Shown here piece after piece: positions 6,650-28,118 of a stretch of 33,783 bases of DNA. Location: the NCBI GenBank assembly GCA_964633235.1, contig CAZWGD010000001.1, positions 1-33,783 on the forward strand, read 5' to 3'. The notes under the pieces were generated by a model that worked only from the letters and a program-made list of their open reading frames with translations, ran no database searches and was not told the DNA's origin. The stretch comes from an uncultured Desulfobacteraceae bacterium. GTDB lineage: Bacteria > Desulfobacterota > Desulfobacteria > Desulfobacterales > CAZWGD01. Both the position numbers and the translations under genes were made by a program. The stretch's first letter is position 1. Every line of letters begins with the position of its first letter.

Positions 6650-7522
<873 letters not shown>

Positions 7523-7581
7523 GGCGTTATGACTTCAATATCAATTGCTTGGGGAGAGGCCGCAGGCCTAGCTTCCAAGGT

Positions 7582-8751
7582 TCAGGGGTCCCAAGTGTCC
7601 GCCTGCAACCCGATCCACGCGCTTTGGACTGCGGGTTGAGCTGCATGCTTGGTCTGCCGATATATTTCCAGCAAGGTTTCAGGGGTGATATCACGACCAC
7701 CCAACCCTGCGATGTAGCTGAAAACCGCCGGACCGCCTTTTAGATTGCATAGGGCCGCCCGCACTTCCTGGGCAAAGATGCCACCGGCGCCAAATGAACA
7801 GTTTCGATCGACCACGGCGACTTTAGAGGCCTGACCGAGAATACGACGGATCTTTTCCGCCGGAAAAGGCCGCAGCATTTTGATCTTTAGCATCCCCACA
7901 CTTTCCCCCCGGGCGCGCAGGCCGGAGAGGGCCAGTCTGCAGGTGCCGCATACGGTGCCGCTGACAACCAGCACCACGTCAGCCCCCCGGCAATGGACAG
8001 CCTCCACGTCACCGTATCGGCGTGCGAAGTGCTGGTCGAACGCCGATTCGAGGCGGTCCCACAAAGCCGGTACCCGTTCCATGGCCTGCTGGAGGTCATG
8101 ACGCATCTCCATATAGGCGTTGGGTGCCACCATCTGGCCCAAGGCGTATGGAGAGGCCGGGTCGAGTCGGATTTTTGGCTTGAAGGGCGGTAGGAAACGG
8201 TCCACCTGTTCCTGGGTCGGGATGTCCACCGGTTCATAAGTGTGGGAAAGAAAAAAGGCATCCAGGACCACCATCACCGGCAGGTTGATCTGTTCCCCAA
8301 GGCGATAGGCCATCAGGGTAGTGTCAAACACTTCCTGGCCGTCCTCGCAGTAAAGCTGGATCCAGCCTGTATCGCGTTGCGACAGGCTGTCGGTCTGGTC
8401 CACCCAGATATTCCATCCCGGGGCCAGAGCCCGATTGACTTCCGCCATGACGATGGGCAACCGGGCCCCCGAGGCCCAGTGCAGCAGTTCGTGCATGTAA
8501 GCCAGACCTTGACCGGAAGTGGCCGTGAAGGTCCGCACACCGCCGCTGGCGGCACCGATTACGGAAGCCATGGCCGAGTGCTCGCTCTCTACGCAAATAA
8601 ATTTGGCGGCCAGTTCGCCATCGGCGACCTGACCGGCAATGGCTTCAACGATATGGGTCTGGGGTGTGATAGGATAGGCCGAAACCACCTGGACCCTGGC
8701 AAGCCGCACGGCTTCGGAGACCGCCCGGCTGCCCTCAATTACCTGGCGCAT
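7582..8751 (-). CDS. 2-oxoacid:ferredoxin oxidoreductase, alpha subunit
   Basis: The PorA-type N-terminus is MRQVIEGSRAVSEAVRLARVQVVSAYPITPQTHIVE, followed by TATSGQGLAYMHE. It overlaps the stop of the upstream flavoprotein/delta gene by 17 nt. Confidence 0.9.
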   Translation of the reverse strand: MRQVIEGSRAVSEAVRLARVQVVSAYPITPQTHIVEAIAGQVADGELAAKFICVESEHSAMASVIGAASGGVRTFTATSGQGLAYMHELLHWASGARLPIVMAEVNRALAPGWNIWVDQTDSLSQRDTGWIQLYCEDGQEVFDTTLMAYRLGEQINLPVMVVLDAFFLSHTYEPVDIPTQEQVDRFLPPFKPKIRLDPASPYALGQMVAPNAYMEMRHDLQQAMERVPALWDRLESAFDQHFARRYGDVEAVHCRGADVVLVVSGTVCGTCRLALSGLRARGESVGMLKIKMLRPFPAEKIRRILGQASKVAVVDRNCSFGAGGIFAQEVRAALCNLKGGPAVFSYIAGLGGRDITPETLLEIYRQTKHAAQPAVQSAWIGLQADTWDP

Positions 8752-10489
8752 GTCCCGTCTCCTCCAGACTCATGGCGCTCCGCGGACACTCTTCTACACA
8801 GACACCGCAGCCTTTGCAGTAATCCAGGTCGATCCACCGGGTGGGTTCACCGATGACCGCTGTCTCCGGACAGAACAAGCTGCAGTTGCCGCAGTCGGTG
8901 CATATGCCGCAGTTGAAGCAGCGACCGGCTTCTGCGGAAGCGGCGCTGTGAACGTAATCAGACTGCGTGGGCGAGAATGACAAACGACCTTCCCGGCATG
9001 CCCCTGAAGCCGGTTCTTGTCTAGATGCGGATTCGAAATAGCCCGTGTTGATATTGGCGTAGTCAACCACCTGCCCCAGTCGCTGCCAAGACCCTTCCCC
9101 TGCGGTATAATGCGCCATGCTTAGCGCCGGTCCCGGGCCTACCCGGCAAGCGGCGAGCCTCTTTTCAATGTGCTGCCACCCCCGCCGGTGATAGACATCA
9201 ATGGCCATGGCCGCTTGCTTGCCGGAAGCAATGGCATCGGCGACACTCAGCTTATGGTTGACCAGGTCACCGCCGTATACAATCGGTTTCTCGTTGGCCG
9301 TCACGGTGCAGTGACTTAGACATAGCCTACCGGCCCCCCCTCTTTGAAACGGTAGCCACGCGGATTCCGCTTCTGCACCCAGGGCGGCAAATACACGCTC
9401 AACCCGCATGGTTTCGTGGCTGCCCCGAAGCGGAAAGGGTTTCACCCTGCCATCGTCATTTTGCCGGATTCCGACTGCCATCTGTTGCAGCTGAACAACC
9501 AGCGACCCGCCTTCCTGGGCAATTTTGACGGGGCGGGTCAGCTCCCTGATGTTGACGCCCTCCCGGCGGGCCGCCGTAATTTCTTGGCCGAGGGCGGGCA
9601 TGTCGGCAACGCGCCGACGGTAGAGAATCACCGCTTCAGATCCTAAACGCACGAGGGTTCGGGCCACGTCGATGGCCGTGTTACCGCCACCGATAACGGC
9701 CGAGAGCCCCTTGAATACGGTCATGCGGCCCCGGCGGATCGCCCGCAACAGGGTAAGCCCATCCAGGACGTGGATCGCCCCGGGGATTTTCATTTTAGCC
9801 GGCAGGCCCAGGCCGCATCCCACAAAGATGGCCTGGTAGGTTTCTCCGGCCGTCCGCAGAAAGGATGCCGAGACGGGGTGATTGCAGTAGATGGCCACCC
9901 CCTGGTTCTGAATCCGCTTGACCTCACGCTTCAAGACAGCCGGGGGTAGACGGTAAGCGGGAATTCCCCACCGCAGCAGCCCGCCCGGCGCCGCCTCAGC
10001 TTCGAAGACATCACAGGCATAGCCCAGACGGCGTAAAAAGAAGGCCGCGGCCAGCCCGGAGGGGCCTGACCCGATCACGGCTACCCGCATCCTGTTGGTG
10101 GGGCCGGGGGTGATCTCGGGTAAAGTCCTTTCATGAGTGAACGGCCGTCCCACAAAGCGCTCGATGGCATTGATAGCCACAGGAGCGTCCAGCTGGGAGC
10201 GAATACAAGACCGCTCACAGGGATGAGAGCAGACATGACCGCATACTTCCGGAAAGGGATTTTCACCCAGCATACTTTGCAGCGCCCGGTGATAGAGGCC
10301 CCGGGAGGATAAACTCATCAGCGTCGGGATATCCGTACCGAGCGGGCAGGCAGCACTGCATGGCGCGGTCTTGTTGATTAAGACCGGCTGCAGGTAACGC
10401 CAGGAACCGGTCTTATTCACACGTGTTGAACGGTCCGAACGAGAAATCAACAAGGAGCGTCCGTCAGGGATGTCTGGTTTGCCGGCCAC
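8735..10489 (-). CDS. Fusion of a GltD/NfnB/SudA-like NAD(P)H:FAD iron-sulfur flavoprotein with an OFOR delta-type 2x[4Fe-4S] ferredoxin domain
   Basis: N-terminal Cys clusters are CSAACPLGTDIP and CGHVCSHPCERSC. The FAD Rossmann motif is VAVIGSGPSGLAAAFFL...GGLLRWGIPAYRLP. The second dinucleotide fold is SAVIGGGNTAIDVARTL. The C-terminal part carries CFNCGICTDCGNCSLFCP and CKGCGVCVEECP. Confidence 0.85.
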   Translation of the reverse strand: MAGKPDIPDGRSLLISRSDRSTRVNKTGSWRYLQPVLINKTAPCSAACPLGTDIPTLMSLSSRGLYHRALQSMLGENPFPEVCGHVCSHPCERSCIRSQLDAPVAINAIERFVGRPFTHERTLPEITPGPTNRMRVAVIGSGPSGLAAAFFLRRLGYACDVFEAEAAPGGLLRWGIPAYRLPPAVLKREVKRIQNQGVAIYCNHPVSASFLRTAGETYQAIFVGCGLGLPAKMKIPGAIHVLDGLTLLRAIRRGRMTVFKGLSAVIGGGNTAIDVARTLVRLGSEAVILYRRRVADMPALGQEITAARREGVNIRELTRPVKIAQEGGSLVVQLQQMAVGIRQNDDGRVKPFPLRGSHETMRVERVFAALGAEAESAWLPFQRGGAGRLCLSHCTVTANEKPIVYGGDLVNHKLSVADAIASGKQAAMAIDVYHRRGWQHIEKRLAACRVGPGPALSMAHYTAGEGSWQRLGQVVDYANINTGYFESASRQEPASGACREGRLSFSPTQSDYVHSAASAEAGRCFNCGICTDCGNCSLFCPETAVIGEPTRWIDLDYCKGCGVCVEECPRSAMSLEETGHAPGN

Positions 10490-10493
10490 TATT

Positions 10494-11090
10494 TCAATTC
10501 CTCTGCTGTTCCGACGGCGGCATTTGCCGGCGGATCACTTTTTCAAAGGCTTGCCGGGCGGCCCTTGCATTGGCGTCAGGTTTTGAGGAAAGATCCCTTT
10601 CAATGACCGCCATGACGATTTCGATGGGTGGTTTTTTTAAAAGGCCTGCCAGGGCGCCGATCATGGCCGTGTTCACCATGGGATGCGTGCGTGTGCCCAG
10701 GTTGTTGTCCGCGGCAATCTTGGTCGCATCAATGGTGGCCAGTTTAACCCCTGAAAAATGATTTGCGAAATCTGAACCCGCGGGTGCATTCAGCAGCACC
10801 CAACCACCGGGCTTTAAGCCCTGGGTGATGTTGACGATTTGCATCAGGCGTCCGTCCTGCACCAGAACATGGTCCGGTGTGGTGATACTATACCTGGCCA
10901 GGATTTTTTGGGTATCGATTCTGAGATAGGCTTCCACCGGAGCCCCGCGTCTTTCCACCCCAAATGAGGGGAAAGACTGGACATGAAAACCCGCCTGGAA
11001 AAAGGCCTTTGAAAGCAGAACAGCAGCCACAACCGTACCCTGTCCGCCGCGGCCGTGAAAGCGAATTTCCTGCATCCGGTCAACTTTCAT
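10494..11090 (-). CDS. 2-oxoacid:ferredoxin oxidoreductase, gamma subunit
   Basis: The PorG-type pattern is IRFHGRGGQGTVVAAVLLSKAFFQAGFHVQSFPSFGVERRGAPVEAYLRI. It lies 4 nt upstream of the next gene. Confidence 0.9.
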   Translation of the reverse strand: MKVDRMQEIRFHGRGGQGTVVAAVLLSKAFFQAGFHVQSFPSFGVERRGAPVEAYLRIDTQKILARYSITTPDHVLVQDGRLMQIVNITQGLKPGGWVLLNAPAGSDFANHFSGVKLATIDATKIAADNNLGTRTHPMVNTAMIGALAGLLKKPPIEIVMAVIERDLSSKPDANARAARQAFEKVIRRQMPPSEQQRN

Positions 11091-11109
11091 TTGCGTTACC
11101 GCCCTGTTT

Positions 11110-14100
11110 TTAGGCCGTCGCCCCTTGGACTCTCATTTTTAGACCGCCCTGCCCATACGGTTCTCCGTGACGGCCGTTTTGCAAGAACCTGAGATATGGA
11201 ATGATGACCTCGTTTTTATTGCTTTCGGTCCCATCGTAGGTGATGGAAACAACCGGGACACCGGTGCTCTTTTCAATCTCCTTGGCCATGGCTTCCGTTA
11301 CAAGCGATGGGCAACAAAAGGCGGGACTGGTCTGGACAAACATGGCCAGGTCGGGATGATGCTTCAGAAGATAGTGAATCTTGATGATATTTTCCATGGA
11401 TTCACCGGTATGCTCCAAGCGCATATTATACCGAGACAAGATTTTTTCAGGCGGATCGTTATATTCCGGCTCGGATTCTCTCAATATCAACTTCAGGTAT
11501 TTTTCATAACGCTTTTCCAGAAGCGTTACGGCTGAGATCATGGCCTTGGAGGCCAGGACACTCAGATAATTGCCCTCCACGAACCATTTTCGAAGATAGG
11601 GTCTGGCGATCATCTTGATGTAGGAGCTGTACGGGGTAGTCACCACCCGCCCCCCCCAGGATTCGATTTGATGAACCAGGTTCTGGTTGCATACCGCATT
11701 ATCGCGTGCATACAGATCACCGAATATGGCCACCTTGGGTCGTGGCGACAAGCCCGGGTCTCTCGTTTCAATGGCTGCCAGCCGCTCGACAACTTCTGCC
11801 AGGGCATTCTCCTTGGACCGCCTTCCCAAGAAGGCGTTTTCCAAGATCGCCAGGCATTGCTGCAGGACGGCATCTGTCTGGCCTGAATGGCATTCATAGG
11901 GTCGAATCATGCATCCCATTTTATGCAGGAACCCACCGAACATATAGGCGAAATAGATGCTGATGGGCAGTTTTTTAGAGATGTCTGCAAAAGACATGAT
12001 CCCGGGATACACCTCCGCGTTTTCAAACCCGTTGCCCTGTTTTGACAACATATGCTTGAGATGCATCGGCAGGAGGCCCAGGTTGCACGGTATGGTGGAA
12101 CGGATCATCCAGAGAATACACCGGGACGGATCAAAGCCGTGACGCTCAACAGTATCAATGAATTCCTGCCCGATGATATTCATCGGGATGCATTGTCCCG
12201 TGTTATGGCGCAGGCTCTTCTGAATGCTTACATGACGCTCTTCTAACAGGTGTGCATCAACACCTTCGCGTCTTAAGGCGGCCACCACCAGGCGCAGGGA
12301 AATGTCCCCCCAGTTGGGCAGCATCAGGGTCTTGCCGGCCAGATCGATGGCTGCCGATTTGCGCAGGGGTTTCAGGGCCGCAGGCGCAATCTTTTTTCTC
12401 TTGGCGCCGTGGTGATTTTGGAACGATTGGATAGCCGCTTCGATACGGGTTTCATACCCGACGGTTGAATCGTGTTCATCCAGCTGTAGAATCAGGTATG
12501 GTTTCGCATACCGGTCCATGATTTGCTTAAAATATTCGGCCACATAGGAATCGGGGCTGCATTTGAAGGACGTAATCAATACCGGATAAGCGTCCGGGTT
12601 TAGGGCGGTCTGTGCAGCTGCCTTCACAATCTCCGCAGCATAGTGCCAATGCAGCTGATCCAGCAGCGGATCAATTGACCCAATCGCCCGGTCCGTGACG
12701 GTGATCATGTCCTGATAAAAGGTCTTGACGCCCAAGGCGCTGAAAATGTCGGGAATGCCCTTGTTCATATGCCTGGAGAGCACCGTGTAAGGCCTTCCCA
12801 GGAGCACCACGTGAAGCTGACCGGCCACAGCCGTTTCCCGGCTGTACAGCTGCTTGAGGGCCTGCAGCCGCTCCCGTTTCATCCTCAAGGCTTGCTCAAA
12901 GGCGGCCGAAACTTTAGAGAATGCTATTCTCCGCGCAGAGACAGTTTTGAGCATGTTGTACAGCTGAATCCGCGCGTGGAACTTGCCGTAGAGGTAGTAA
13001 ATCAGCGGTGTTAAAAAACGGTTCCGCAGGTCTTTCGTCGAGTGACTCCGGTCCTTGATAAAAGATGCCAGGGTGGGCGCATATTGGGTGTAATAACAGT
13101 ACTGCCTGCGGCGCTGATGGCCACGGCGCCCGTGGTCCAGGTAAAACGGCATAAAGATAAAATCCGCTCGGTCCAGCAGGTGAAGGATATGTCCGTGCGT
13201 GGCGGCTATGGGTGCACAAAACTCCGCCCCAGCGAGATGCTTGCCGTCCCGGAGGCCATGTGAAAAATCCGCACTTGTAAGGGTTTTTAGGCCCAATGTA
13301 TGAAAGAATAGCTGCCAGAATTCCAGGTCTTCCTGGAGATGCAGTGCCGCCGGGATACCAATGGTAAGGGTCTGCGGACCCGCGGTTGACTTTGGAATCG
13401 AGAAAAGCTTCTTTCTTTCCTTAAGCAGGTCGAAACCGGACAGGTTGTTGTTGACATACTGTCTGGTATCATAATCCCTGCCGCATAAAAATCCGTATGC
13501 GGTTGTGCGGCCATGGACCTCGGCAACGCTCAATTTGCAGTGGTTGCTGCAAATCTCACAGACTTCAGTTTGAATGGGGATCTTTTTTTGATGAAGATTC
13601 AGCCCCTTGAACCGTGAGGTTGTCAGCCGGGCATCGGCAAGCTTCAAGGCTACCCCCAGTGCACCGGAAAGATGACAATATGGCGATACTTGGATCGGTT
13701 TTCTCAACCGTTGTTCAAAAGCGGCCACTAGCGCCCGGTTTTTGGCCGTGGCCCCTTGAAACAGAACGGTGTTGCCGATGTTGCCCTCCACGGCGACCTT
13801 GGTAAGATAATTTTCCCTGATGGCGTGCAGAACAGATGCCAGGACCTCATCTTTAGGGTACCCTCTGCCGAGGTAGTAATTGATGTCCCTTTCCATGAAA
13901 ACCGTGCAGCGATCGCTGCTAAGGGGTGCACGACGCCCTACAGCACGATCAGCGTAAGCCGCCAGAGGACATTCCAGTCTCGAGGCCTGCTCTTCGATAA
14001 AGCTGCCGGTGCCCGCGGCACAGACCGTATTCATAACCGAAAAGGTAACCCTGCCGTTGTTGAGGGTTGTGAACTTGCTGTCTTGTCCACCGATTTCAAT

Positions 14101-15411
14101 AATCGTGTCAACCTGCGGGTTGATCTCGACAGCCGCCCGGGCATGGGCCGTGATTTCGTCTACCACCAGATCGGCCCCCAGGATGCGGCCTGTAAATTTT
14201 CTTCCGGACCCCGTAGTGCCGGCCGCTAGAATTTTCAGGTGCCCCTCTTCATCCGCCAGCATATCCGCTATGGCGGCGAACAAGTTTTGCACGGCGCTTA
14301 CGGGCCGCCCTGATGTACGGGTGTAAAACCCAGCCAGTACCTCACCGGACCGGTTGGTGATAACGGCTTTGGTGCTGGTTGAACCAATATCGATCCCTAA
14401 ATAGGCCTGCAAAATGTTCCGGTCATCGGAATCAAGATGGATATCCCGGTAAATATCCACTTCAACCGGTATGGAAAACTCATCCCGCCGGGGTCGAAAT
14501 ATATACTGCTTTAGACTGTTGAAGTCAGGATAGTCCGACAATCTTAATTCCAGCGGATGATGAAAGTAAGAAAGCGCGGTATTTTCGTGAACCAAGAGAT
14601 CATCGATCTCGCGGATGTGCATTTCGGAATGGCAAGCGGCCTCGTGGGCTAGAGTCAGAGCCGCCCCTACGGCACCGTAGTGGGATGACTCGGCCTGGAT
14701 GTCCAAGCCAACCAGTGCCTGAATATGTTCGACAACAGCCTTATTCCGGGAAACACCGCCACAAAAAATGATGGGGCCTTCCGGGGACTCTCCCACAAAA
14801 AGCGTATCCACAATATTGCGCGCCAAACCCTGGCAGAGACCGTCGCAGATCTCCGTCAAGCTGTAGCCTTCCTGCTGTGCATGCACCAGGTCGGTCTTGG
14901 CAAAGACGGCGCATCGCGAAGCGATCTTGGGAATTCTTCCAGTGTTGGCATGGGCAATGCGACCGAGTTCGGCAACACTTTGCAAGCTTAGCCGCCCGGC
15001 TTGCTGGTCAAGAAAACTTCCGGTGCCGGCGGCGCAGGAAGTGTTGGTCCGGTAGCCCAGATAGTTGTCCCGGCTATCGAAGCGGATCAAGCCGAACTTC
15101 TCCCCCCCGACGATCAGAATCGAGCCCACGGCAGCATGAAAATGACGTGCGGCCGCTATAACCGCTATGCGGTTATCATACCGCGCGGTGGCTTTAAGGG
15201 TTGCTGGAGATGACGTGGTGGCGGCAATGTATCGTATCGGCGAAAGATCTATATCGGCCAGAAGCGCGGCCAGGGTCGGCTTCAGGTTGCCATGGTGAAA
15301 TCCATAGCGGGTCCATAGAAGATGTTTATCAGCGGTCAGGCCCGCGATGGCTACAGCCACCGATCCGATATCTATGCCCAAGATTTGGCACCGGCTGGAT
15401 GAGTTTGTCAT
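11110..15411 (-). CDS. 1433-aa fusion: two HgdC/BcrAD-BadFG-type ATPase (activase) modules plus a large DUF2229/dehydratase-component-like C-terminal region ('CoA-substrate-specific enzyme activase' family)
   Basis: Module 1 has LGIDIGS, NTSCAAGTGSFLDQQ and SRCAVFAKTD. Module 2 has LGIDIGSTSTKAV, NTVCAAGTGSFIEEQ and DRCTVFMERD. The Cys-rich linker is CEICSNHCKL..FLCGRDY. About 800 further residues follow with no motif I can assign to a catalytic function. Confidence 0.85.
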   Translation of the reverse strand: MTNSSSRCQILGIDIGSVAVAIAGLTADKHLLWTRYGFHHGNLKPTLAALLADIDLSPIRYIAATTSSPATLKATARYDNRIAVIAAARHFHAAVGSILIVGGEKFGLIRFDSRDNYLGYRTNTSCAAGTGSFLDQQAGRLSLQSVAELGRIAHANTGRIPKIASRCAVFAKTDLVHAQQEGYSLTEICDGLCQGLARNIVDTLFVGESPEGPIIFCGGVSRNKAVVEHIQALVGLDIQAESSHYGAVGAALTLAHEAACHSEMHIREIDDLLVHENTALSYFHHPLELRLSDYPDFNSLKQYIFRPRRDEFSIPVEVDIYRDIHLDSDDRNILQAYLGIDIGSTSTKAVITNRSGEVLAGFYTRTSGRPVSAVQNLFAAIADMLADEEGHLKILAAGTTGSGRKFTGRILGADLVVDEITAHARAAVEINPQVDTIIEIGGQDSKFTTLNNGRVTFSVMNTVCAAGTGSFIEEQASRLECPLAAYADRAVGRRAPLSSDRCTVFMERDINYYLGRGYPKDEVLASVLHAIRENYLTKVAVEGNIGNTVLFQGATAKNRALVAAFEQRLRKPIQVSPYCHLSGALGVALKLADARLTTSRFKGLNLHQKKIPIQTEVCEICSNHCKLSVAEVHGRTTAYGFLCGRDYDTRQYVNNNLSGFDLLKERKKLFSIPKSTAGPQTLTIGIPAALHLQEDLEFWQLFFHTLGLKTLTSADFSHGLRDGKHLAGAEFCAPIAATHGHILHLLDRADFIFMPFYLDHGRRGHQRRRQYCYYTQYAPTLASFIKDRSHSTKDLRNRFLTPLIYYLYGKFHARIQLYNMLKTVSARRIAFSKVSAAFEQALRMKRERLQALKQLYSRETAVAGQLHVVLLGRPYTVLSRHMNKGIPDIFSALGVKTFYQDMITVTDRAIGSIDPLLDQLHWHYAAEIVKAAAQTALNPDAYPVLITSFKCSPDSYVAEYFKQIMDRYAKPYLILQLDEHDSTVGYETRIEAAIQSFQNHHGAKRKKIAPAALKPLRKSAAIDLAGKTLMLPNWGDISLRLVVAALRREGVDAHLLEERHVSIQKSLRHNTGQCIPMNIIGQEFIDTVERHGFDPSRCILWMIRSTIPCNLGLLPMHLKHMLSKQGNGFENAEVYPGIMSFADISKKLPISIYFAYMFGGFLHKMGCMIRPYECHSGQTDAVLQQCLAILENAFLGRRSKENALAEVVERLAAIETRDPGLSPRPKVAIFGDLYARDNAVCNQNLVHQIESWGGRVVTTPYSSYIKMIARPYLRKWFVEGNYLSVLASKAMISAVTLLEKRYEKYLKLILRESEPEYNDPPEKILSRYNMRLEHTGESMENIIKIHYLLKHHPDLAMFVQTSPAFCCPSLVTEAMAKEIEKSTGVPVVSITYDGTESNKNEVIIPYLRFLQNGRHGEPYGQGGLKMRVQGATA

Positions 15412-17242: not shown

Positions 17243-17398
17243 TGTCTGATCAAGCTTGAAATGTCGCCGCTTGCGTGCCCTTTTTGCGCTCGGGCTGCGT
17301 TACGCTTTCAGCCATATAGGTCCACTAGGCGGTTAAGAGGGCGCCATGCGTATGTGACCTGTTACCAAACAGTCACAATTCACCCCAGCATTCGTGAA

Positions 17399-17734
17399 CT
17401 ACTTTTTGTGCCTATAAAAGCGAACATCCGCCTTTTCCAATGTGGCCAATCCCACCTGGATGGCATCGTCTACCGCTCTCAAGAAACTTTCCAGGTTTTC
17501 TTTCGAGTCCACGATTTCGATAATGACCGGAAGATCTTCCGAAAGGCGCAGAATTTTCGAGGTGTGGATGCGGCTGTTGGCGCCGAACCCCATCATGCCC
17601 TTCATCACGGTGGCACCGGCCAATCCGAGTTCCCTGGCCTTGATCACCAGCCATTCATAAAGCGGCTTTCCCCGGTGTTGAACATTCTCGCCGATCAGTA
17701 TGCGCAGCAGGTATCCTTCTTCCAGAAATGTCAT
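17399..17734 (-). CDS. DUF190 (UPF0166, PII-like) protein, typical crcB partner
   Basis: LLRILIGENVQHRGKPLYEWLVIKARELGLAGATVMKGMMGFG...LPVIIEIVDS matches the DUF190 pattern. ATG 17734 lies 2 nt after the crcB TGA, with GGAGGTGA as RBS. Confidence 0.8.
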   Translation of the reverse strand: MTFLEEGYLLRILIGENVQHRGKPLYEWLVIKARELGLAGATVMKGMMGFGANSRIHTSKILRLSEDLPVIIEIVDSKENLESFLRAVDDAIQVGLATLEKADVRFYRHKK

Positions 17735-17736
17735 GT

Positions 17737-18120
17737 TCACCTCCAGAGGGCATAGGCGATGACCCTTCCGCACCACACAGCGGTCAGCCCGAAAAAAACC
17801 TGGGCAGCGATATTTGCGGCGGCCAGAATGAAGGCCGAATCGCGCATCAACTCCAAGGTTTCATTTCCAAAGGTCGAAAAGGTGGTTAAGGAACCCAACA
17901 AACCGATCATTAAGAACAAACGGCTTTCAGGGCTTAGTATACCGCGGGTCTCGGCGAGATATGACAACAGACCGATAAACAGGCAGCCGATGATATTTAC
18001 TCCCAACGTACCGAAAGGAAAGCTGATGCTTTTGGAAGCCGCCTGGATCCCCCCGCTGATACCATAGCGAAGAATAGCGCCCACAAATCCACCCAATCCA
18101 ATAATAATCAGTTTCGTCAC
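17737..18120 (-). CDS. crcB: Fluoride ion channel CrcB/Fluc
   Basis: A 127-aa four-helix membrane protein with GGFVGAILRY, FPFGTLGVNIIGCLFIG and LGSLTTFSTF. It starts at GTG, preceded by GGTGGGGA. Confidence 0.9.
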   Translation of the reverse strand: MTKLIIIGLGGFVGAILRYGISGGIQAASKSISFPFGTLGVNIIGCLFIGLLSYLAETRGILSPESRLFLMIGLLGSLTTFSTFGNETLELMRDSAFILAAANIAAQVFFGLTAVWCGRVIAYALWR

Positions 18121-23016: not shown

Positions 23017-23522
23017 TTTTTAATACGAATTGATTGCCAGTATTTGGCGGCCCAATAGGGATCGTCGAGGCTGGTGATCTGCACCCCCCTGCGGGTGGAT
23101 ACCTGGATAAATTTGCGGTTTTCCAGGTAGATCCCCACATGCCTGTCAAACCAGCCCGTTTTGAAGAACACCAGGTCACCGGGTTTCAGGTTCTTCTGAA
23201 AAATCCGCCTGCCGGATGTTGACTGTGACTTCGTATCCCTGGGGAGCTTGATATCAAATAATTTTTGGTAGGTGATGTATACGAAACCGGAGCAGTCAAT
23301 GCCCCTTTTGCTCAGTCCCCCGCTGCGGTACCTGACGGAGCGCCACTCCGCGAAGTGGGCGTAGAGCGCCCGTTTCACCTTTTCCGTATCGGATAGGGGC
23401 ATCGCTTCAACGGCGGCGGCGTCAGAGGGAGTGCCGATGACAATCACGGTTTTCGGACATCCGGTGAGCAGGATGGCTGCCAGCAGTACAATGGGAAAGC
23501 CTTTGGTCTTTTGTGTCAACAT
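23013..23522 (-). CDS. NlpC/P60 (C40) peptidoglycan endopeptidase lipoprotein
   Basis: The lipobox is LLAAILLTGC. The catalytic Cys context is GIDCSGFVYITY, and the downstream His context is DLVFFKTGWFDRHVGIYL. Confidence 0.85.
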   Translation of the reverse strand: MLTQKTKGFPIVLLAAILLTGCPKTVIVIGTPSDAAAVEAMPLSDTEKVKRALYAHFAEWRSVRYRSGGLSKRGIDCSGFVYITYQKLFDIKLPRDTKSQSTSGRRIFQKNLKPGDLVFFKTGWFDRHVGIYLENRKFIQVSTRRGVQITSLDDPYWAAKYWQSIRIKK

Positions 23523-24142
23523 GGCTGGAGGCCGATAATGCCCTCAATCTCTCTCAGGCTCTGAATGTGAAAATCGGCGGCCAGGTCGGTATTGCCGTAG
23601 GCAATAAAGCCTACATTCGCCCTATGGGCGGCTATCTCGTCCAGTTTGGAGTCCCCCACATAGAGCATCTCTTGCGGGTTGATGCCAAAATTCCGCAGGA
23701 TTTTAATCAACAGGTCAGGATGGGGTTTAGGGTGGACCACGTCTCCGGCAGATACAACGGCATCGAAATAGCCGGTCAACCCATGCATCTGAATGACCAT
23801 TTCGATGCTGTCGGTGCGGTTGGTGGCCACCGCTGTTTTCAAAAAAGGCCTGATACGCCGGATGAGCGGTTTGAGGTACGGTTCCATCTCCATCTCGGAG
23901 ATAAACGGAAGGTAATCCAGGGTGAGGCGATAGGCATTTACCTTTTCCATTTCGATTTTGTTTTCGAAAAGGAAGGGAATGCTCTCTTTGACCGTATGCA
24001 TGTGGATGAACCGGAACTGCTCCGGTGTCATGGCCGGCAGGTCGAAGTGGTCGAGCAGATGGTTGTAATAAGCCCGGTTCGATTGTTCGGTGTCGAACAT
24101 GACCCCGTCGCAGTCAAAGGCAATGGACTTGATACCCTTCAT
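23516..24142 (-). CDS. HAD-superfamily hydrolase (phosphatase, subfamily IA-like)
   Basis: Motif I is IAFDCDGVMFDTE, motif II is VATNRTD and motifs III/IV are K...YVGDSKLDEIAA. ATG 24142 was chosen because the longer ORF extension overlaps the upstream gene's end. Confidence 0.85.
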   Translation of the reverse strand: MKGIKSIAFDCDGVMFDTEQSNRAYYNHLLDHFDLPAMTPEQFRFIHMHTVKESIPFLFENKIEMEKVNAYRLTLDYLPFISEMEMEPYLKPLIRRIRPFLKTAVATNRTDSIEMVIQMHGLTGYFDAVVSAGDVVHPKPHPDLLIKILRNFGINPQEMLYVGDSKLDEIAAHRANVGFIAYGNTDLAADFHIQSLREIEGIIGLQPC

Positions 24143-24152
24143 AGCACCGAGC

Positions 24153-25028
24153 CTAGTCCGTGGTTTGTTGCCGGAGATCCGGTTTCTTCTGGGCTGTTTT
24201 TTGCCGGGGTGTTTGTTTAGGTGCCATGATATTCCCATGGACCCTGATCTTCAGTTTCGGCCGAATGTGGCTGTCTGTTTTTAACGTAATGGTATCGTAG
24301 TATTTCCCCAGCTTCTGCATCACGTTTTCAATGACCAAGAGATACCCGGGACCGTCTTCCGCCATCTTCCTTTCCAGGTGGAAACTGATATTGGCGCCCT
24401 TCATGGCGGTGGCTTCCAGAACGCTGAAAGGGTATTCCTTTTTGGGGATGATGGTTACGGTCTTTTTCATCAGCTTGCCCAGCCGTCCGCTCAGGTGTAC
24501 GGTTCCCGGTTTGATGATGGCAAAATTCTTCACGCTTCCAAATATGCTGAGGCGGTACTTGGCAAATCTGGCATCGTTGGTGCGTATGGAAATGCTTTTG
24601 GCCATTTTTCGGCCGCCATATCCCCTTGTATTCAGCTTGATGGCTATTTTCCCCTCGCCGCCGGGAGGGATTTGCTTCGTATAGGAAGCAACCGTGCATC
24701 CTCATCCGGTCCTGACGCCGATTACCTGAAGGTCGGCGGTGCCCCGGTTTTGAACCGCAAAACTATGCTCGATTATGGTGCCCTCCAAAACCGGCGGGAA
24801 CTCGTAGCTACTAGCCGGGAAATGTGCAGCCGGTGTCGGTTGGGAAGCGCCAGGAGCCTGGTGCTCAGATGATTCAACGGCGCTATCATCAGCCCGGGCC
24901 GTGTTTTCAGATGCGGAAGGCAAGGTGTCGTCGGAGCGGGCGACGGTTATCCCGGTCCCGGGAAACACGGCTGTCCAGGCCAGAATGGCGGCATAGAGCA
25001 GACAAAGAGAAAAACGCTTCGTGGGCAT
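24153..25028 (-). CDS. Secreted DUF1573-domain protein, candidate selenoprotein (in-frame TGA at 24702-24704 read as Sec; 291 aa)
   Basis: ORFs 24702..25028 and 24153..24605 share one frame, and the 32 codons between them are open. The read-through sequence FPPVLEGTIIEHSFAVQNRGTADLQVIGVRTG-U-GCTVASYTKQIPPGGEGKIAIKLNTRG matches the DUF1573 pattern, with the TGA at the first Cys of the SCGCT motif. AAGGAG lies 9 nt before ATG 25028, and an N-terminal signal peptide is present. Confidence 0.7.
24668..24701 (-). promoter_or_regulatory. Candidate SECIS-like hairpin immediately 3' of the in-frame UGA
   Basis: The mRNA reads UGA-GGAU-GCACGG-UUGCUUC-CUAUAC-GAAGCAA-AUCC. A perfect 7-bp upper stem (24685-24691 with 24672-24678) is closed by a 4-bp lower stem (24698-24701 with 24668-24671). 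The apical loop starts 17 nt after the UGA. Confidence 0.45.
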
Positions 25029-25063
25029 GCTTCTATACTCCTTTTAAAAGGGGATTAAACCGA

Positions 25064-25091
25064 AACCCGCCGAATGCGGGTTGTCTTTTTT
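25064..25091 (+). terminator. Terminator-like hairpin with its T-tract on the plus strand
   Basis: AACCCGC-cgaat-GCGGGTT forms a perfect 7-bp stem, followed by gtcTTTTTT. Both flanking genes are on the minus strand, where the hairpin is followed only by UCGGUUUAAU. Confidence 0.4.
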
Positions 25092-25191: not shown

Positions 25192-27693
25192 TTACATCAT
25201 GAAAATGGGATCAACATCCAAGGCTACCTTTACCCTGGCCGATCTGAACATCTTTTTGCGGGAGGTGAGCAGTCGCTTCATAAAGTCGTGAATGATCCCC
25301 GGGGTCTCACCCTTTAACAGGATCCGATAGCGGTGGTGGTCGGCGATCTTCGGGATGGCGGCCTCAATGGGACCCATGACCCGGACCCCTTTTTTAAAGG
25401 TCGGCACTGAAGCCCTTATCTGTCGACAGGCCGAACTCAGGTGTTGAGACAGCTCATGGGTTGGACGCTTGTCCTTCCCCCGGATTCTCAGCAGAACCAT
25501 CCTGGAGAAGGGCGGGTAATGCAAAGCCTTGCGAAAGGTGATCTCCTGGGAGTAAAACAGGTGAACATCCTGTGCCTTAGCCGCCCGGATGCTGAAGTGA
25601 TCCGGGTTGTAGGTCTGGAGAATGACTTTTCCGGGTGCATCCCCCCGGCCAGCCCGGCCGGCCACCTGCGCCAGCAGCTGGAAGGTGCGTTCCCCGGACC
25701 GGAAATCCGGAAAGTTCAAGGAGAGATCGGCACAGATAATGCCTACCAGGGTGATGTTGGGAAAATCGTGGCCCTTGGCCACCATCTGGGTGCCGATCAG
25801 CACATCGACGGATCCGTTTCGCACCTGTTTTAAAATGTTTAAAACCGCATTTTTTCCCGTGGTGGTGTCCCGGTCCATGCGGGCCACGGAGGCCTTGGGA
25901 AACATGGACTTCACCATGGACTCCAACCGCTCGGTGCCCATTCCGAGAAGCTTTATGTTTGAGGTCCGGCAGTGGGGGCATTGCAAGGTCGCCTGCCGTC
26001 TGAACCCACAGTAATGGCACTTGTAGATATGATGTTGCTGGTGATAGGTCAGGGCGATATCGCAGTGGGGGCAGCGTACGGCTTCGCCGCAGCCACGGCA
26101 CAGGGGCAGCCGGGCATAGCCGCGTCGGTTCAGAAATAGCAGTACCTGCTCCCCCCGCCCCAGGGATTGGGACATGGCACTGTACAGCCGGGGGCTGATA
26201 AACCGGCCGGTTTCGGTCCTGCCCTTTATTTTTCGCAGGTCCACGGTGATGATGTCCGGCAAGGGGCGGTTTTCAATCCGCCGATCAAGGCTCAGGTCGA
26301 TAAACTTCCCCTTTTTAGCATTATGGCAGGATTGAACGGAAGGGGTCGCCGACCCTAAGAGCGCCACGCACCCTTGGAGTTTGGCCCGCAGTACGGCCAG
26401 GTCCCGGGCATGGTATCGCAACCCGCCCTCCTGTTTGTAGGAGGTGTCGTGTTCTTCATCGACCACGATTAAGCCGATATTGGCCAGGGGTGCAAACACG
26501 GCTGATCGGGCTCCGACGGCGATGGGGGTCTTTTCTCTAACAATGCGTATCCACTGATCGAATCTTTCTCCCCGGGAAAGGCCGCTGTGCAGTACCGCCA
26601 CCCGGTTTCCGAAACGTGCCCGGAAGCGCCCCTCAGTTTGTGATATGAGGGCGATTTCAGGAACCAGCACCAGCACGGTCTTTTTGCGCCTAAGGACCTC
26701 GGCGGCCGCCTGGAGATAGATTTCGGTCTTTCCACTTCCGGTGACCCCGGTTAATAGACAGGTTGAAAACCCTTGGTCCAAAACCCCGGTCACCCTGCGC
26801 ATTACCTGCCGCTGGTCCACGGTGAGGCGGAGAGGTTGATCCCGGCGGATCGATTCTCCAAATGGGTTCCGGAACACCGGCCGTTTTGAAATGGTTGCAT
26901 AGCCCATATCCCGGAGGGGTTTTACCTGCCGGGGTGCAGAGGGTACCATAGCGGTTAAGGCCTTCAGGGGGATTTCCCCCTTAGACGACAGGACGCGCAC
27001 GATTTTTTGTTTGGCGGGTGACAGTTTTTCTCCATGGGGAGGATGGTCCGGACCCGGAGGCCTCAGACGCGGGCCCGGGGCAATGATCCGTTCGGTCCTG
27101 GATCCGGTTCTGCCCGTGACCAAGCGTTGTTTTTTGGACAGCCACCCTTTGCGGACCATGGTTTGTATCAGCCCATGGGAGATGTCTACTTTCAGCTCGC
27201 GGCTCAGGGCCTTAAGGTTGGCCGGCTGTTGCTTAAGGTGCTGCAGCACCCGGCTCTCCAAAGGGGTCGCAAGCCGGTTTTCCAGCGCCCTTTTCCCATC
27301 CCGGGTAATGGAAAGCTCGGCCACCTCGATGGGGTTGATGCCCCCGGGAAGCGCTCCTTTGATTACCTCTCCCAGGGGGTGCATGTAGTAGCCGGAGATC
27401 CATTGAAAAAACGGAACCATATCCGGAGGAAAGAGCGGCCATTCATCCAGGACGTCCAGGATGGATTTGATGGGCTTGCCCCGCACAGCCACCCCCGGCC
27501 CGGTGACATATCCTGTCACCCTGCGGCTGCGAAAAGGGACCAGAACCCGTTTGCCGGGACAAATGAGCGGTCTCAGGGGGTCCGGTATTTGATAGGTGTA
27601 GGTGTCGTGAACGGGAAGAGGGACGGCAACACTGACATGGTCTGTCGCAGGGAGTCCGTGTTCTCCTACTCCTTGGGATGACATTCCACGCAT
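25192..27693 (-). CDS. priA: Primosomal protein N' (replication restart helicase PriA)
   Basis: VAVPLPVHDTYTYQIP is the 3' DNA-binding domain start. Walker A is LLTGVTGSGKTE, and DEEH is VVDEEHD. The Cys-rich Zn region is CRGCGEAVRCPHCDIALTYH..YKCHYCG..LQCPHC. Its first 19-28 nt overlap the end of the cytochrome c3 gene. Confidence 0.9.
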   Translation of the reverse strand: MRGMSSQGVGEHGLPATDHVSVAVPLPVHDTYTYQIPDPLRPLICPGKRVLVPFRSRRVTGYVTGPGVAVRGKPIKSILDVLDEWPLFPPDMVPFFQWISGYYMHPLGEVIKGALPGGINPIEVAELSITRDGKRALENRLATPLESRVLQHLKQQPANLKALSRELKVDISHGLIQTMVRKGWLSKKQRLVTGRTGSRTERIIAPGPRLRPPGPDHPPHGEKLSPAKQKIVRVLSSKGEIPLKALTAMVPSAPRQVKPLRDMGYATISKRPVFRNPFGESIRRDQPLRLTVDQRQVMRRVTGVLDQGFSTCLLTGVTGSGKTEIYLQAAAEVLRRKKTVLVLVPEIALISQTEGRFRARFGNRVAVLHSGLSRGERFDQWIRIVREKTPIAVGARSAVFAPLANIGLIVVDEEHDTSYKQEGGLRYHARDLAVLRAKLQGCVALLGSATPSVQSCHNAKKGKFIDLSLDRRIENRPLPDIITVDLRKIKGRTETGRFISPRLYSAMSQSLGRGEQVLLFLNRRGYARLPLCRGCGEAVRCPHCDIALTYHQQHHIYKCHYCGFRRQATLQCPHCRTSNIKLLGMGTERLESMVKSMFPKASVARMDRDTTTGKNAVLNILKQVRNGSVDVLIGTQMVAKGHDFPNITLVGIICADLSLNFPDFRSGERTFQLLAQVAGRAGRGDAPGKVILQTYNPDHFSIRAAKAQDVHLFYSQEITFRKALHYPPFSRMVLLRIRGKDKRPTHELSQHLSSACRQIRASVPTFKKGVRVMGPIEAAIPKIADHHRYRILLKGETPGIIHDFMKRLLTSRKKMFRSARVKVALDVDPIFMM

Positions 27694-28118
27694 CCGGTGG
27701 GGCCGGTGGGCTTGATATGCGTGTCGTCCGCGGGGAACTTCCCGGCCATGCTCTCATTTTCGGCTTTTATCTCTTTATGACATCGGATGCATTTATGATG
27801 AAAAGACGCTTTATAATACATGATCGGTTCGTCCCCCTTCTCCGGGGCCTCTTCGAGATCATGGCAGCCGGATGTGGAACAGGACTGCACCGCGTCGTCT
27901 CCCACCCAGTTGTGGTGGCATTCCTGGCAGGATATTTCGAAATGAAGGCCATGGGGAAACTCAACAGGGGCCCGTGTGGGTTCAACCGATTCCGGTGGTG
28001 ACAGCGTGATGTTCCCCATAGGGATGCACATCTCTTCGTCCGCGCCCACCAAGCCGCCCCCGCAAATAATACCGACAGCCAAACCAAATACCAGAATTTT
28101 TTTCCGTAACATCCTCAT
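27666..28118 (-). CDS. Periplasmic tetraheme cytochrome c3 (class III)
   Basis: A signal peptide precedes four heme-binding sites in the c3 arrangement: CQECH, CSTSGCH (CxxxxCH), CIRCH and CVECH. Extra His residues could serve as bis-His ligation. Confidence 0.85.
   Translation of the reverse strand: MRMLRKKILVFGLAVGIICGGGLVGADEEMCIPMGNITLSPPESVEPTRAPVEFPHGLHFEISCQECHHNWVGDDAVQSCSTSGCHDLEEAPEKGDEPIMYYKASFHHKCIRCHKEIKAENESMAGKFPADDTHIKPTGPTGCVECHPKE

Follow-up and report, generated by a model that had tools for sequence, protein, structure and literature searches.

The 33,783-nucleotide stretch analysed here (the window), positions 1 to 33,783 of contig CAZWGD010000001.1 from an uncultured Desulfobacteraceae bacterium (GenBank assembly GCA_964633235.1), carries on its minus strand, at 25028..24153, a gene that is interrupted by one in-frame TGA codon. 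We regard it as very probable that this is a single OS_HP2/DUF1573 selenoprotein gene, in which the UGA would be recoded to selenocysteine (Sec) through an RNA structure downstream of the codon, and whose U-G-C product would reside in the cell envelope with a redox-active (or else chalcogen- or metal-reactive) centre. An earlier note, made from the letters of the sequence without database searches, had proposed a selenoprotein at this site.

Reading frame, family and the in-frame TGA codon

On the minus strand, 25028..24153 was found to form one frame of 292 codons, terminated by TAG, in which the TGA at 24704-24702 (codon 109) is the sole internal stop; read-through translation gives a product of 291 amino acids including Sec109. 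The two open reading frames (ORFs) listed for this region, 24702..25028 (108 aa) and 24153..24605 (150 aa), lie in the same frame with no stop in the 32 intervening codons, and 3' of the TGA the frame is open for 182 codons. At the junction the read-through sequence runs from QVIGVRTG over the TGA codon into GCTVASYTKQIPPGGEG. The ATG at 25028-25026 is preceded, at a distance of 9 nt, by a Shine-Dalgarno GGAG, read from the sequence at 25038..25041 (minus strand).

Residues 70-166 of the Cys-substituted protein were recognised by Pfam as one PF07610 (DUF1573) domain, aligned to profile positions 3-98 of 98 with E = 4e-17 and 62.5 bits (cutoff 26.1). Because this one match extends over nearly the whole profile, the DUF1573 domain runs across the TGA. 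The two ORFs therefore belong to one gene, as the earlier note had read them, and its assignment to DUF1573 was confirmed by the profile check it had called for.

Comparison with NCBIfam placed the gene in a named family. Model NF041425 ('OS_HP2 family (seleno)protein') matched residues 71-167 over profile positions 2-98 of 98 with 135.4 bits (E = 6.8e-40), and since this passes the curated cutoff of 100, the NCBI annotation pipeline would already name the gene. The further marks of OS_HP2 were likewise found, namely the PF07610 domain and Sec as the first residue of U-G-C, aligned with the Cys of C-G-C homologues. The prokaryotic selenoprotein catalogues of 2022 (PMC9312934) and 2026 (PMC13188914) include a DUF1573 domain-containing protein (pfam07610) with the motif UGC, represented by CAB1076174.1 and MDJ0815992.1. 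Both catalogues credit the Olavius algarvensis symbiont study of Zhang & Gladyshev 2007 (NAR 35:4952; PMC1976440), where OS_HP2 appears in Table 2 among six new families, the δ1 and δ4 symbionts each having a single gene of it. Judged by its sequence, the window gene is a member of this already described OS_HP2/DUF1573 'UGC' selenoprotein family, predicted in 2007, with which it shares the domain, the Sec in first position of U-G-C and the deltaproteobacterial (Desulfobacterota) host range; nothing essential differs. Of the 'candidate new selenoprotein' put forward by the earlier note, the selenoprotein gene thus holds and the new family does not.

A protein search yielded 16 homologues, in whose alignment the column of the TGA codon is occupied by Cys in ten (P0005, P0006 and P0009-P0016) and by Trp in six, while the Gly and Cys that follow are invariant. 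The U-G-C motif Sec109-Gly110-Cys111 (24696..24704, minus strand) hence has its UGA (24702..24704) exactly where the C-G-C of the homologues has its first Cys, as the earlier note had located it. In the six database entries with Trp (P0001-P0004, P0007 and P0008; loci L001-L008), the DNA has TGA at that codon. These entries are evidently mistranslations, in which gene callers applied a UGA = Trp code to short contigs.

When each GTDB species was scanned through one genome, 80 loci were obtained, all from Desulfobacterales-type metagenome-assembled genomes (MAGs) or isolates, and TGA was present at the Sec column in 79 of them, the exception being Desulfamplus magnetovallimortis with TGT. A metagenome scan, although queried with Cys forms only, gave TGA in 79/80 loci and TGC in the remaining one; in both scans the 80 loci kept were those most similar to the queries. 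The comparison of orthologues at this codon, which the earlier note had suggested as a check, thus came out as an interchange of TGA with TGC/TGT. Altogether, 159 distinct Sec-form genes were available (the window gene and 158 others), with pairwise protein identities of 39-93% (median 50%). Cys occupies the Sec column in rarer or more distant DUF1573 homologues, and a true TGG was never seen there. Since 158 further orthologous genes, all distinct, share the TGA, neither chance nor a sequencing error can account for it, and this comparison of sequences indicates that the in-frame TGA almost certainly encodes Sec in a genuine selenoprotein gene.

The orthology of the loci is supported by synteny: the gene for a HAD phosphatase follows immediately downstream in 70 of the 71 loci whose sequence extends far enough, and upstream priA was found in 47/54. 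Both neighbours are also present at locus L171, where the Cys-form P0012 occupies the same priA–gene–HAD position. As far as these loci tell, close relatives across Desulfobacterales have, almost without exception, retained OS_HP2 in its Sec form, at this fixed locus. The synteny, together with the origin of all 80 best genomic orthologues from Desulfobacterales-type genomes, agrees with the Desulfobacterota lineage that had been deduced from the gene content of the window. The window gene is at most 53% identical to any orthologue in GTDB species representatives, and its best PriA match reaches 55%; by these values, none of the GTDB species representatives is close to the organism.

The RNA element downstream of the UGA

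From 85 distinct Sec-form genes, aligned by codon, normalised synonymous entropy was calculated. It was 0.84 on average over 91 conserved degenerate codons and fell to 0.46 at codons +4..+17 counted from the UGA (Mann-Whitney p = 6.4e-6). Glu+16 is encoded by GAG in 85/85 genes, against 318/1108 (29%) for Glu elsewhere in the same genes, and Pro+12 by CCT in 84/85, against 156/827 (19%). Pro+13 is CCC in 81/85, Thr+8 is ACG in 51/52, Val+5 is GTC in 60/64, and Arg+9 is AGR only, with the exception of one CGG. All Sec-form diagnostic codons (GAG at +16, CCT CCC at +12/+13 and ACG at +8) are present in the window gene. The codons constrained at synonymous sites map onto two adjacent hairpins, and the constraint is attributed to an RNA-level element.

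Hairpin 1 (24672..24691, minus strand; UUGCUUC-CUAUAC-GAAGCAA; -7.1 kcal/mol) has its stem 10 nt and its loop 17 nt after the UGA, and hairpin 2 (24652..24669, minus strand; CCCUCCC-GGC-GG(C)GAGGG; -8.5 kcal/mol) has a C-GGY-G apical motif and a one-base bulge. The minimum-energy fold of the window sequence from the UGA to +54 consists of exactly these two hairpins, with -17.8 kcal/mol together. In 82 distinct sequences, pair 32-45 of hairpin 1 is UA in 38, UG in 23 and CG in 21, and pair 33-44 is CG in 71, UA in 10 and UG in one, with no unpaired case at either position; pair 33-44 couples an Arg/Lys replacement with a synonymous change four codons upstream. In hairpin 2, 99.1% of cells are paired in 82 sequences, and covariation is absent there because the hairpin is almost invariant. 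The two-hairpin structure as a whole is 92.9% paired, compared with 37-56% when the partners were slid, and 32 double-change cells were observed against 4.9 ± 5.0 in shuffles, with none of 500 shuffles reaching 32. Of the stable hairpin that the earlier note had seen directly after the UGA, the structure is thus conserved, its position is 10 nt further on rather than adjacent, and its folding energy is unremarkable.

In five distinct Cys-form genes the codons are relaxed (GAA, CCG, ATT/GTT), and hairpin 1 keeps 3-6 of its 7 pairs and hairpin 2 keeps 3-7 of 7; in these five sequences, Cys-type DUF1573 genes thus differ from the Sec forms by Cys in place of Sec and by lacking the constrained codons and hairpins downstream. 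A Desulfonema sp. MAG was observed to carry two adjacent paralogues about 820 nt apart (L021:8460 and L021:9280), one with TGA and the other with TGC. In the TGA paralogue both hairpins are intact, whereas in the TGC paralogue hairpin 1 is lost (3/7 pairs) and Glu+16 is encoded by GAA. By sequence, the two are a natural Sec/Cys pair within a single genome.

An alternative helix proposed by RNAalifold, pairing the UGA itself (columns 17-20) with columns 32-35, was not adopted, as it is invariant, offers no covariation that would be informative and is incompatible with hairpin 1, which does covary. It was further observed that synonymous entropy is also lowered at codons -4 to +3 (24693-24716), with a mean of 0.66 against 0.84 (p = 0.003); examples are Val-4 (GTC in 63/82), Thr-2 (ACC in 58/77) and Gly+1 (GGG in 67/85). 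This reduced variation around the UGA may reflect a codon-context effect on UGA decoding, or pairing of the RNAalifold type between columns 17-20 and 32-35.

In Escherichia coli fdhF, the selenocysteine insertion sequence (SECIS) is spaced about 10-11 nt from the UGA. Hairpin 1 starts at a similar spacing and, like the fdhF element, forms a stem-loop inside the coding region just after the UGA. The bacterial SECIS consensus (bSECISearch model; PMC13188914, Fig. 2) specifies an upper stem of 4-16 bp, a minimum free energy not above -7.5 kcal/mol, and an apical loop of 3-9 nt that lies 16-37 nt from the UGA and has a G at its first or second position (N1-G-[G/U]-N-N2). Hairpin 1, with a stem of 5-7 bp, a 6-nt loop and 17 nt between UGA and loop, lies within the limits for loop, stem and spacing. 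Hairpin 2 does so for loop and stem, whether drawn as a 5+2 bp stem with a 3-nt loop or as a 5 bp stem with an 8-nt loop. The energy threshold is reached by hairpin 2 (-8.5 kcal/mol) and by both hairpins together, hairpin 1 having -7.1 kcal/mol. Hairpin 2 also shares with the consensus the N1-G-[G/U]-N-N2 loop, both G positions of its C-GGY-G being invariant in 84 sequences, and the bulged base typical of bacterial SECIS elements; from these features it is a candidate for the SECIS loop bound by SelB. During translation, the UGA at 24704-24702 would then not be read as a stop but recoded to Sec, with SelB·GTP·Sec-tRNA(Sec) presumably recruited to this RNA structure within the coding sequence, in which hairpin 1 (24691-24672) would hold the E. 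coli-like distance and hairpin 2 (24669-24652) would offer the SECIS-type apical motif and bulge.

The U-G-C product and the weighing of alternatives

The N-terminus (24939..25028, minus strand) resembles a cleavable signal peptide of the Sec (secretion) type by sequence reading, with MPTKR followed by a hydrophobic stretch and ...TVA|RS. A basic and hydrophobic N-terminus was detected in 138 of 153 complete orthologues by a crude heuristic, as opposed to a dedicated signal-peptide predictor. In 27 orthologues, an OmpA-like peptidoglycan-binding domain is located between the signal peptide and DUF1573; the window gene, which is fairly divergent from other OS_HP2 members, has a low-complexity linker at this place. 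Because of the signal-peptide-like N-termini and the OmpA-like fusions, the mature protein is most likely situated in the periplasm or cell envelope.

Beyond the linker, two immunoglobulin (Ig)-like β-sandwich domains are predicted. The first is the DUF1573/OS_HP2 domain (aa 70-166; 24531..24821, minus strand), which holds the Sec codon and is supported by Pfam, NF041425 and the model of P0005. The second (aa 167-265; 24234..24530, minus strand), followed by a basic tail, is conserved in homologues; it gave no match to a Pfam family, and in the P0005 model it is all-β with a predicted local distance difference test score (pLDDT) above 90. This AlphaFold2 model is that of a Cys homologue, 48% identical to the window protein; it has a pLDDT of 89.5 and comprises two β-sandwich domains. 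Its C-G-C, at residues 80-82, forms a tight turn between strands 71-78 and 83-87, to which the U-G-C of the window protein is equivalent. The structural neighbours of the model are HYDIN/ASH-type Ig domains and 2qsv, a Porphyromonas protein, and a sequence search of the PDB returned no relative of the protein. A thioredoxin-like α/β fold with UxxC/CxxU, as in the thiol/selenol oxidoreductases that are the most frequent bacterial selenoproteins, was not found: the protein is an all-β tandem Ig-like sandwich with the motif U-x-C, and, going by the model, it has an Ig-like fold, unlike the classical redox folds. The tandem Ig-like β-sandwich, the signal peptide and a C-G-C at the equivalent turn are common to Cys-type DUF1573 proteins such as P0009, an exported hypothetical protein of D. 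magnetovallimortis, and 2qsv of Porphyromonas gingivalis.

According to the reading preferred here, Sec109-Gly-Cys111 would lie in the β-turn, and Sec109 and Cys111 would close a reversible selenylsulfide that serves as a redox centre in the envelope. A Sec near a resolving Cys in a short turn is also seen in the C-terminal GCUG of thioredoxin reductase and in the UGSC-containing protein family, the latter listed in the selenoprotein catalogues (PMC9312934; PMC13188914). By this analogy, a small-ring selenylsulfide is suggested, although the window protein differs from these proteins in its U-x-C spacing, its Ig-like fold and its probably extracytoplasmic location and has no homology to them. 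The notion raised in the earlier note, that the C-G-C motif of DUF1573 is redox-active, is reasonable as a putative assignment.

A different function for a true selenoprotein was considered, in which the U-G-C binds a soft metal or metalloid (Cu, Hg, Cd, As, sulfide/polysulfide) in the periplasm instead of forming a catalytic redox selenylsulfide. C-X-C motifs bind metals and metalloids elsewhere, for instance the CVC motif of ArsR and metallothioneins. The Ig-like β-sandwich is not a thioredoxin-type oxidoreductase fold, and the host lineages live in sulfidic sediments, as gathered from the titles of the loci. In addition, the 2007 study that described OS_HP2 found metal-related selenoproteins (YHS-domain, MerT-like, cation ATPase) in the same organisms (PMC1976440). 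No conserved metal-resistance or transport genes adjoin the gene, however, whose neighbours are priA and the HAD phosphatase gene, and most Sec/Cys pairs mark a redox-active Cys (PMC9312934). Such binding of a soft metal, metalloid or sulfur species is regarded as less probable than the redox reading, but as a serious alternative to it.

Decoding of the UGA as an ordinary amino acid, either under a variant code (Trp/Gly) or by SECIS-independent near-cognate read-through inserting Trp or Cys, appears very unlikely. Public gene calls do give Trp here in six orthologues, and leaky UGA read-through is known in bacteria. Against this, TGA terminates other well-supported genes of the window, those for the M24 peptidase, BirA and the TPP enzyme, from which a standard genetic code is concluded, and the Trp calls are artefacts of code choice on short contigs. 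The homologues have Cys and never a true TGG at the column, and simple leakiness would not require a dedicated conserved RNA structure after the codon.

A pseudogene or an assembly or sequencing error, by which the TGC/TGT Cys codon of an ordinary or dead DUF1573 gene was mutated or misread as TGA, would fit the existence of Cys-form homologues; it is rendered most improbable by the same TGA in the 158 orthologous genes from independent assemblies, by the 182 intact codons downstream and by the full set of Sec-form diagnostic codons in the window gene. Equally improbable are two independent small genes of 108 and 150 aa that merely share a frame, for although both ORFs are listed mechanically with ATG starts, one domain profile of 98 positions aligns without a break over the junction, conservation in the family is highest in just the part encoded by the 32 codons from the TGA to the internal ATG (GCT..SY..QIPPGGEG), and the Cys-form orthologues are single proteins.

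Several observations weigh against the assignment as a recoded selenoprotein gene with a redox-active envelope product. Neither selA, selB, selC or selD nor any tRNA or Rfam RNA family was detected in the 33.8-kb window (Rfam at gathering thresholds, ARAGORN, and Pfam on 26 ORFs), and the flanks of 58 orthologous loci contained no tRNA-Sec; the ability of the organism to insert Sec is assumed from its lineage and from the gene itself. In the 2022 table, the DUF1573 family stands in the computationally predicted part, outside the 16 experimentally verified families (PMC9312934). The fold is not among the known redox folds. The folding energy of the hairpin region is unexceptional compared with shuffles (z = -1.0 for 81 nt and -0.5 for 57 nt), so that its significance, as far as the sequences tell, comes only from comparative data and not from thermodynamics, and whether Cys forms lose the RNA structure was judged from five distinct sequences only. 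Hairpin 2 encodes the highly conserved IPPGGEG, and its nucleotide conservation, which is without covariation, is partly protein-driven; the synonymous-site argument, drawn from the codon alignment, addresses this part.

The incomplete match to the SECIS consensus is a further point against the assignment. Hairpin 1, at the right distance, has no loop G, its loop being N-U-A/U-Y-N-C (CUAUAC in the window), whereas the loop of hairpin 2, which has the GG, is 37 nt (8-nt loop) or 39 nt (GGY loop) from the UGA and thus at or just beyond the limit. By sequence, neither hairpin alone satisfies every bacterial SECIS constraint, and the element is SECIS-like with its features split over the two hairpins. 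This fits the 2007 study, where SECIS drawings were given for five of the six new families and OS_HP2 was omitted (PMC1976440, Figure 5 legend). A bolder proposal, which we consider doubtful as a whole, is that the OS_HP2 signal would be a bipartite SECIS outside the consensus, in which a hairpin at +11 would serve as the obligatory spacer and a C-GGY-G loop of SelB type would lie at 39 nt, and that the product would be a periplasmic Ig-fold selenoprotein whose U-G-C chemistry, in envelope redox or in chalcogen or metal handling, has not been assigned to any selenoprotein. In the literature found, neither the bipartite SECIS nor the U-G-C chemistry of OS_HP2 is addressed.

Genomic surroundings and meaning for the family

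The HAD-IA phosphatase-like gene (23516..24142, minus strand; PF13419, E = 3e-29) begins 10 nt after the stop of the selenoprotein gene, and priA, recognised by its PriA domains, lies upstream at 25192..27693 (minus strand). From what their sequences indicate, these conserved neighbours give no functional clue. The stop of priA and the start of the selenoprotein gene are 163 nt apart, and in this gap a G+C-rich hairpin (AACCCGC-CGAAT-GCGGGTT) was observed at 25064-25082; terminator-like on the plus strand, it could represent a transcript boundary or a bidirectional terminator. A promoter and terminator scan returned match counts near or modestly above those of shuffled sequence, with no terminator-like match on the gene's own strand.

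A scan of all window frames revealed no credible split gene with an in-frame TGA besides 24153..25028. A same-frame ORF pair on the plus strand (17261-17755 / 17759-18067) was considered as a Sec or pyrrolysine candidate and dismissed: the separator is TAG plus one codon, the Arg/His-rich translation of 17261-18067 resembles antisense noise from minus-strand genes, and no Pfam match was obtained. Elsewhere in the window, the minus-strand region 6650-15411 contains subunits of 2-oxoacid:ferredoxin oxidoreductases (POR, POR_N/PFOR_II, TPP_enzyme_C), a GltD-like Pyr_redox_2/Fer4_20 protein and a 1433-aa fused BcrAD_BadFG + DUF2229 CoA-enzyme activase; judged from these domains, the cluster is typical of anaerobic Desulfobacterota. 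A class III cytochrome c is encoded at 27666-28118. These genes support the lineage that the earlier note had deduced.

For annotation, the result means that ORFs 24702..25028 and 24153..24605 are to be merged as a single gene for a selenoprotein, in which codon 109 is Sec; public metagenome protein sets contain the same split, or else Trp by mistranslation. At the family level nothing is new, the family being known already, and the role of the U-G-C site, or of the C-G-C site of DUF1573, is a modest question rather than a surprise. The points added for OS_HP2 are the near-universal retention of Sec at a fixed locus, a constrained two-hairpin recoding element that straddles the SECIS consensus, and the Ig-like fold.

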